This document shows, in pieces, positions 21,450 to 23,151 of a DNA stretch of 64,000 bases. Under the pieces are notes generated by a model. It had not been told where the DNA came from. It saw only the letters and a program-made list of their open reading frames with translations, and made no database searches. Each line of letters opens with the position of its first letter. The stretch's first letter is position 1. Both the position numbers and the translations under genes were made by a program. Source of the stretch: Escherichia coli (GTDB lineage Bacteria > Pseudomonadota > Gammaproteobacteria > Enterobacterales > Enterobacteriaceae); assembly GCF_965641715.1 (NCBI RefSeq), contig NZ_OZ282453.1; one strand, written 5' to 3'.

Positions 21450-21462
21450 CCAGGAGGTTTAT

Positions 21463-23151
21463 TTGCAATTTGACTACATCATTATTGGTGCCGGCTCAGC
21501 CGGCAACGTTCTCGCTACCCGTCTGACTGAAGATCCGAATACCTCCGTGCTGCTGCTTGAAGCGGGCGGCCCGGACTATCGCTTTGACTTCCGCACCCAG
21601 ATGCCCGCTGCCCTGGCATTCCCGCTACAGGGTAAACGCTACAACTGGGCCTATGAAACGGAACCTGAACCGTTTATGAATAACCGCCGCATGGAGTGCG
21701 GACGCGGTAAAGGCCTGGGTGGATCGTCGCTGATCAACGGCATGTGCTACATCCGTGGCAATGCGCTGGATCTCGATAACTGGGCGCAAGAACCCGGTCT
21801 GGAGAACTGGAGTTATCTCGACTGCCTGCCCTACTACCGCAAGGCCGAGACTCGCGATATGGGTGAAAACGACTACCACGGTGGCGATGGCCCGGTGAGC
21901 GTCACTACCTCCAAACCCGGCGTCAATCCGCTGTTTGAAGCGATGATTGAAGCGGGCGTGCAGGCGGGCTACCCGCGCACGGACGATCTCAACGGTTATC
22001 AGCAGGAAGGTTTTGGTCCGATGGATCGCACCGTCACGCCGCAGGGCCGTCGCGCCAGCACCGCGCGTGGCTATCTCGATCAGGCCAAATCGCGTCCTAA
22101 CCTGACCATTCGTACTCACGCTATGACCGATCACATCATTTTTGACGGCAAACGCGCGGTGGGCGTCGAGTGGCAGGAAGGCGACAGCACCATTCCAACC
22201 CGCGCGACAGCGAATAAAGAGGTGCTGTTATGTGCAGGTGCGATCGCCTCTCCGCAGATCCTGCAACGTTCCGGCGTGGGTAGCGCTGAACTGCTGGCGG
22301 AGTTTGATATTCCGCTGGTGCATGATTTACCCGGCGTCGGCGAAAATCTTCAGGATCACCTGGAGATGTATCTGCAATATGAGTGCAAAGAACCGGTTTC
22401 CCTCTACCCTGCCCTGCAGTGGTGGAATCAGCCGAAAATCGGTGCGGAGTGGCTGTTTGGCGGCACCGGCGTTGGTGCCAGCAACCACTTTGAAGCAGGC
22501 GGATTTATTCGCAGCCGAGAGGAATTTGCGTGGCCGAATATTCAGTACCATTTCCTGCCAGTAGCGATTAACTATAACGGCTCGAATGCAGTGAAAGAGC
22601 ACGGCTTCCAGTGCCACGTCGGATCGATGCGCTCGCCAAGCCGTGGGCATGTGCGGATTAAATCCCGCGACCCGCACCAGCATCCGGCGATTCTGTTTAA
22701 CTACATGTCGCACGAGCAGGACTGGCAGGAGTTCCGCGACGCAATTCGCATCACCCGCGAGATCATGCATCAACCGGCGCTGGATCAGTATCGTGGCCGC
22801 GAAATCAGCCCCGGCACGGAATGTCAGACGGATGAGCAGCTCGATGAGTTCGTGCGTAATCACGCCGAAACCGCCTTCCATCCGTGCGGTACCTGCAAAA
22901 TGGGCTACGACGAGATGTCCGTGGTTGACGGGGAAGGCCGCGTGCATGGGCTGGAAGGCCTGCGCGTGGTGGATGCGTCAATTATGCCGCAGATTATCAC
23001 CGGGAATTTGAACGCCACGACGATTATGATTGGCGAGAAAATGGCGGATATGATTCGCGGGAAGGAAGCGTTGCCGAGGAGCACGGCGGGATATTTTGTG
23101 GCAAATGGGATGCCGGTGAGAGCGAAAAAAATGAGTCGTGATTTGAACTGA
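21463..23151 (+). CDS. betA: Choline dehydrogenase (GMC oxidoreductase)
   Basis: N-terminal FAD motif [18 protein letters not shown]; no in-frame ATG upstream of it, so start assigned to TTG at 21463 with AGGAGG 5 nt upstream. Confidence 0.85.

Follow-up and report, generated by a model that had tools for sequence, protein, structure and literature searches.

Translation of betA almost certainly starts at TTG 21463..21465 (plus strand), behind a strong Shine-Dalgarno (SD) sequence, and this codon is the ordinary annotated translation start of the third gene of betIBA. Positions refer to the window, the whole 64,000-nucleotide stretch of Escherichia coli DNA that was analysed. The initial annotation had placed the start at this TTG, and curated annotation, the presence of ATG in orthologues and an initiation peak observed in vitro all agree with that placement. 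The start is already known, because the reference annotation gives it for this textbook gene, and it has been covered by published in-vitro start-site mapping; a full-text literature search for a published statement on the betA TTG start returned nothing specific. The result confirms the reference betA start and matters little beyond annotation hygiene. A longest-ORF call picking TTG 21418 (577 aa) would be wrong.

The betB stop codon TAA (21447..21449, plus strand) lies 13 nt ahead of the betA start, so that the intergenic spacer comprises 13 nt and TTG begins with the 14th base past the betB stop. The SD sequence AGGAGGT (21452..21458, plus strand) begins 2 nt past this stop and ends 4–5 nt before the start codon; its core AGGAGG (21452-21457) is separated from TTG by the 5-nt spacer TTTAT (21458-21462). 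Both the motif with its spacer and the 14-nt distance had been described initially and are read directly from the sequence. The coding region opens with TTG CAA TTT GAC TAC ATC ATT ATT GGT GCC GGC TCA GCC GGC. The FAD-binding fingerprint of BetA (21472..21504, plus strand) comprises residues 4–14 of the translation and was present in 80/80 related loci. Its D is residue 4 when counted from TTG 21463, in keeping with the earlier statement that the fingerprint begins at this residue. The nearest in-frame stop upstream of betA is TGA 21403-21405. The interval from there to the fingerprint lacks an in-frame ATG, as had been claimed, and an in-frame GTG as well.

AGGAGGT provides seven bases complementary to the 3' end of 16S rRNA, with a duplex energy of −11.0 kcal/mol. 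The values for betB and betI are −8.9 and −6.0 kcal/mol, so that betA has the strongest SD of the three operon genes. Only 12 copies of AGGAGG are present in the 64-kb window, counting both strands, and the position of one of them 5 nt before the betA TTG is therefore no chance event; by our arithmetic, a frequency of ~9e-5 per position corresponds to odds of ~6e-4 for finding one 4–9 nt ahead of a given codon. TTG 21463 thus shows the two features looked for in a UUG start, an SD located 4–9 nt ahead of it and the lack of any better start in frame. The same SD pattern scan revealed a tandem AGGAGGAGG at 60512-60520, consisting of two overlapping AGGAGG matches.

Comparison with curated betA starts led to the same codon, which K-12 b0311 and the PGAP annotations share. 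In K-12 MG1655 (NC_000913.3), the annotated betA (b0311, NP_414845.1) occupies 325577..327247 of the minus strand, and K-12 position 327247 corresponds to the first T of TTG 21463. The K-12 junction is identical to that of the window base for base, including start codon, SD and the 13-nt gap after betB. PGAP gives the same TTG start in two further strains, one of which is only 92% identical over the query. The query, 601 nt spanning the betB-betA junction (21200-21800), was compared with 5426 complete E. coli genomes. It matched 5183 records from 5179 of the 5426 genomes at 92–99.8% identity, and all matches fall under betB and betA annotations. Of the 5183 E. coli records, 5107 carry an exact match to the 61-nt junction (21433-21493); the remaining 76 have other mismatches, and the 61-mer with ATG or GTG replacing TTG had no exact match in these records. 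The bet junction is missing from 247 of the 5426 complete genomes. Records classed as plasmids account for 10 of its 5184 matching places.

The coding sequence from this start (21463..23151, plus strand) specifies 562 aa plus stop and matches the TIGR01810 and PRK02106 profiles. BetA is a choline dehydrogenase of the GMC oxidoreductase type, as family score, GxGxxG motif and locus context all fit this assignment. The TIGR01810 betA equivalog scores 1034.4 bits (cut-off 732.1) over BetA residues 4–537, the profile itself beginning at residue 4. PRK02106 (NF002550) scores 1003.2 bits (cut-off 605), with BetA residues 1–557 on profile positions 4–559. Since the latter alignment runs from residue 1, no N-terminal piece of BetA is missing. 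The NCBIfam betA models thus start at, or ~3 residues before, the N-terminus given by TTG 21463, and the GxGxxG FAD-binding motif falls within the first few residues, inside the fingerprint (residues 4–14). The close BetA homologue in PDB entry 9lq0 is aligned from residue 2 and is not decisive on the native E. coli N-terminus.

The neighbours of betA make up a classical bet locus according to family models and the annotation of identical loci. betT, the choline transporter (17214..19247, minus strand; annotation), is divergent from betIBA. betI, the repressor (19376..19963, plus strand; 195 aa; family model and annotation), is followed by betB, betaine-aldehyde dehydrogenase (19977..21449, plus strand; 490 aa; NF009725 at 916 bits and annotation). 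The K-12 bet operon has the same order, with betT divergent from betI-betB-betA.

To compare starts across species, one genome per GTDB species was scanned. In each of the resulting 80 loci the fingerprint was located and the sequence was then walked upstream. TTG stands three codons before the fingerprint D in 33 Enterobacteriaceae species other than E. coli. These belong to Pseudocitrobacter, Enterobacter, Lelliottia, Leclercia, Huaxiibacter and Raoultella, and further include the Klebsiella oxytoca group, Citrobacter amalonaticus and Citrobacter sedlakii. ATG occupies the identical codon in 16 Enterobacterales (Trabulsiella, Pluralibacter, Cedecea, Pantoea, Kosakonia, Tatumella, Rosenbergiella and relatives); the ATG CAA TTT GAC of Trabulsiella is the direct counterpart of TTG CAA TTT GAC in E. 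coli. In Pseudomonas and Moraxella, ATG lies 3–5 codons ahead of the fingerprint D in each of the 31 loci. The betA genes of the ATG group agree with that of E. coli in the position of the start codon, three codons before the fingerprint and directly after betB. They differ in the ATG itself, in an SD ranging from −5.2 to −12.1 kcal/mol and in a betB-betA gap of 12–28 nt, compared with 13–14 nt in every TTG species. The GGAGGT core of the SD was found in 20/20 TTG-clade species tested (−11.0 kcal/mol). On a neighbour-joining tree of BetA, computed with no support values, the TTG lineages make up one group, with the ATG-bearing Pluralibacter and Trabulsiella nested inside. From this topology, TTG looks derived from ATG by one or a few switches and seems to have been retained across several genera.

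Initiation at this codon has been recorded by INRI-seq, in which synthetic fragments from the 5' ends of E. coli genes are translated as a pool in a reconstituted system and initiating ribosomes are trapped with retapamulin (PMC9825163). The betA oligo extends from −30 to about +150 and includes the betB-betA junction (PMC9825163). Table S2 of that study lists betA b0311 with start 327247, strand −1 and 'peak identified TRUE'; the retapamulin peaks were 104.8, 89.4, 84.6, 69.7 and 91.3 CPM, hence in 5/5 replicates, where a peak requires at least 5 CPM within 12–18 nt of the start in two or more of the five replicates (PMC9825163). Table S3 contains no alternative betA initiation site (PMC9825163). 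Evidence for initiation at the betA TTG thus comes from published in-vitro profiling only. In-vivo Ribo-RET (Meydan et al.), as tabulated in INRI-seq Table S2, is 0 for betA (PMC9825163); we assume that this is because the operon was uninduced in that medium. No in-vivo N-terminal peptide or initiation peak for betA was found in the accessible parts of the supplements and literature searched. Within these, the supplements of the TRAINSPOTTER N-terminomics paper do not contain the BetA N-terminus and those of the tetracycline start-site profiling paper do not contain betA.

UUG is one of three canonical bacterial start codons and is used by ~3% of E. coli genes; in reporter assays it supports initiation at 10–100% of the AUG level (bioRxiv 10.1101/063800). 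Like other UUG-initiated E. coli genes, betA combines UUG with an SD at functional spacing, and there is nothing unusual about it. In a comparative study, sub-optimal GUG and UUG starts tended to pair with stronger SDs (PMC5622118). The weak start and strong SD of betA fit this compensation tendency, but the fit is not independent evidence because it represents one or a few evolutionary events. Mechanistically, the anti-SD of the 30S subunit would pair with AGGAGGU (21452-21458), setting UUG 21463 in the P site, and the weakness of UUG would be offset by the near-perfect SD. The protein would begin with Met because UUG is decoded by fMet-tRNAfMet, giving Met-Gln-Phe-Asp-Tyr followed by the FAD-binding beta-alpha-beta motif. 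This Met would be expected to stay on the protein, since methionine aminopeptidase acts poorly on N-termini with Gln in second position.

The initial annotation had also taken the short spacing to imply translational coupling within the operon. From the sequence features of the junction, coupling of betA to betB is plausible, with roughly an even chance of being correct. As the SD starts 2 nt past the betB stop, betA initiation is probably assisted by ribosomes that terminate on betB, which would either reinitiate or unfold a hairpin in which the SD is sequestered; according to a review, both the RNA-unfolding and the reinitiation model remain open (PMC12548453). The betB-betA pair resembles coupled operon pairs in its short positive gap with the SD right after the upstream stop (PMC12548453), and also in a predicted inhibitory structure over the upstream 3' end and the downstream ribosome-binding site. 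The betB-betA gap of +13 nt is short, yet exceeds what is typical of classic tightly coupled pairs, whose genes overlap by 4 or 1 nt (−4 or −1), and any dependence of betA on upstream translation is putative. A competing explanation, to which we give somewhat less than an even chance, keeps the same TTG start and dispenses with coupling. The strong SD would recruit free 30S subunits de novo, and operon compaction alone would account for the short gap.

The in-vitro data bear on this choice. The betA start was used on an isolated −30..+150 fragment (PMC9825163), in which betB translation does not take place, and coupling is therefore not obligatory for start recognition. The betA peak was at least as high as that of betB (~88 versus ~43 CPM; PMC9825163), which likewise favours independent initiation. 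Reporter work has shown that reinitiation drops steeply with distance and varies among gene pairs at +14 nt (PMC10666635), and this rapid fall in efficiency also favours the absence of coupling. On the other hand, the 13–14 nt spacing is kept in all TTG species, which supports coupling and argues against mere compaction. With the SD only 2 nt past the stop, a terminating ribosome would moreover have to occupy or unwind it.

Translational coupling by unfolding would involve a hypothetical hairpin, obtained as a minimum free energy (MFE) structure at 21409..21457 (plus strand), in which betB codons 478–483 are predicted to pair with the betB stop and the betA SD. Folding gave z-scores of −1.4 and −1.6, the former for this hairpin, whose MFE is −14.9 kcal/mol. 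Once the betB 3' end is included, the predicted probability that the E. coli betA SD is paired rises from 0.44 to 0.79. Across 23 species, 92% of cells are paired and there is one compensatory change. Covariation for the SD-sequestering hairpin was not above that in column shuffles for these 23 species, leaving sequence conservation only, and this lack of statistical support speaks for uncoupled initiation.

The betB 3' end is suggestive in the other direction. Synonymous sites of betB were scanned in 12-codon windows in 19 TTG-clade and 15 ATG-clade species. Seven of the eight most conserved windows lie at codons 472–479, in the TTG clade only, with a pairwise synonymous difference of 0.10–0.17 compared with a betB gene mean of 0.37. 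Codons 478–482 (TCC ATC CAG GTT GAG) are invariant in this clade, with zero synonymous difference. The last ~17 betB codons (21388-21449, codons 472–490) form the most synonymous-site-conserved stretch of the gene in the 19 TTG-clade species; the 15 ATG-clade species have no such extreme at the betB 3' end. The 5' arm of the predicted hairpin coincides with the most conserved part of betB in the TTG clade, and the conservation could reflect this arm or another element. Synonymous sites 40–54 nt upstream of the betA start, outside the approximate footprint of a 30S subunit, are unusually conserved in the TTG clade only, which counts against uncoupled initiation by free 30S subunits.

A more far-reaching and rather improbable proposal is that the derived UUG start, the invariant GGAGGU and the hairpin with the constrained betB codons 478–483 together form a conserved device setting the BetB:BetA ratio. 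It would belong to the Escherichia-Enterobacter-Klebsiella-Citrobacter lineage, with GGAGGU 2 nt after the betB stop. If this were true, BetA synthesis would depend on, and stay below, BetB synthesis, and toxic betaine aldehyde from BetA would never outrun the detoxifying enzyme BetB. The conserved weak start, the invariant strong SD and the constrained betB end could mean a tuned BetB:BetA stoichiometry, a small question of operon design.

The synonymous conservation would also be explained by a sigma70 promoter located within the 3' end of betB, from which a separate betA transcript would start at about the SD; we regard this as very unlikely. A consensus scan revealed two overlapping sigma70-like matches compared with 0.3 expected, TTGAGA-N16-CATATT (21418-21445) or the alternative N18-TATTCT (overall span 21418-21447), and these hexamers overlap the conserved betB 3' block. 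They are, however, weak matches to the consensus (9/12), they are degraded in Citrobacter species which retain TTG and SD, and the transcript would start within or just ahead of the SD and be nearly leaderless. The accessible part of the Cappable-seq supplement text contains no transcription start site at K-12 32725x-32727x. With just a 9/12 consensus match and no start site in that text, the promoter was rejected.

The initial annotation had called TTG 21463 the only plausible start. This holds, yet it is not the only possible one, as a second in-frame TTG is present inside betB at 21418..21420 (plus strand), 15 codons upstream. Being the first start-type codon past the in-frame stop, it causes a mechanical ORF list to report a 577-aa ORF from 21418, and its use would lengthen BetA by 15 residues. 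We consider this highly improbable. The best anti-SD duplex upstream of TTG 21418 reaches only −3.8 kcal/mol and is badly spaced. Ten of the 33 TTG species either lack the codon or have it in another frame: a 1-nt spacer indel shifts it out of frame in seven loci of the Klebsiella/Raoultella group, with an in-frame stop at −18, and its position is CTC or ATC in three Citrobacter loci. ATG-clade species have in-frame stops 4–12 codons ahead of the fingerprint D, which argues against an extension of this type. Furthermore, the betA family models require no N-terminal extension, and the start at 21418 is annotated in none of the records examined. As the INRI-seq construct starts at −30, TTG 21418 lies outside it and could not be tested there; the comparative data do test this upstream alternative. 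On account of the poor SD, the lack of conservation and the disrupted frame in relatives, TTG 21418 was rejected as betA start.

A start downstream of TTG 21463 is scarcely conceivable. The only other nearby in-frame start-type codons are near-cognate ATC/ATT (21478-21486) and, at codon 47, ATG 21601, the next one in frame. They were rejected because the FAD motif would be lost, with partial or complete deletion of the first beta-strand and of the GxGxxG motif conserved in 80/80 loci. No suitably placed SD is available, and INRI-seq Table S3 reports no alternative betA site (PMC9825163).

BetA of K-12 has 556 aa (ending in RAKK), in contrast to 562 aa in the window strain and the two PGAP-annotated strains. 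An A7 run is located near the betA 3' end at 23125-23131, where K-12 MG1655 has A6; because of this difference the K-12 stop is reached six codons earlier, and the start is unaffected.

The betI-betB junction also measures 13 nt (TAA CCGAGGAGACGTG ATG). Both betIBA junctions (19961-19979 and 21447-21465) are alike in having TAA, CC, an SD 2–4 nt past the stop and 13 nt from stop to start. In Klebsiella oxytoca NBRC 105695 (L025:1014-1016), ATA is found at the betB start, where other genomes of the K. oxytoca group have ATG; a non-canonical start, an inactivating mutation or a sequencing error could explain this. In the window, an in-frame GTG immediately precedes the annotated betB ATG at 19977 (19974-19988), and a second in-frame betB ATG is present at codon 4 (19986). 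The latter corresponds to a weak alternative initiation site at K-12 328723, with 8.6 CPM in INRI-seq Table S3 (PMC9825163).
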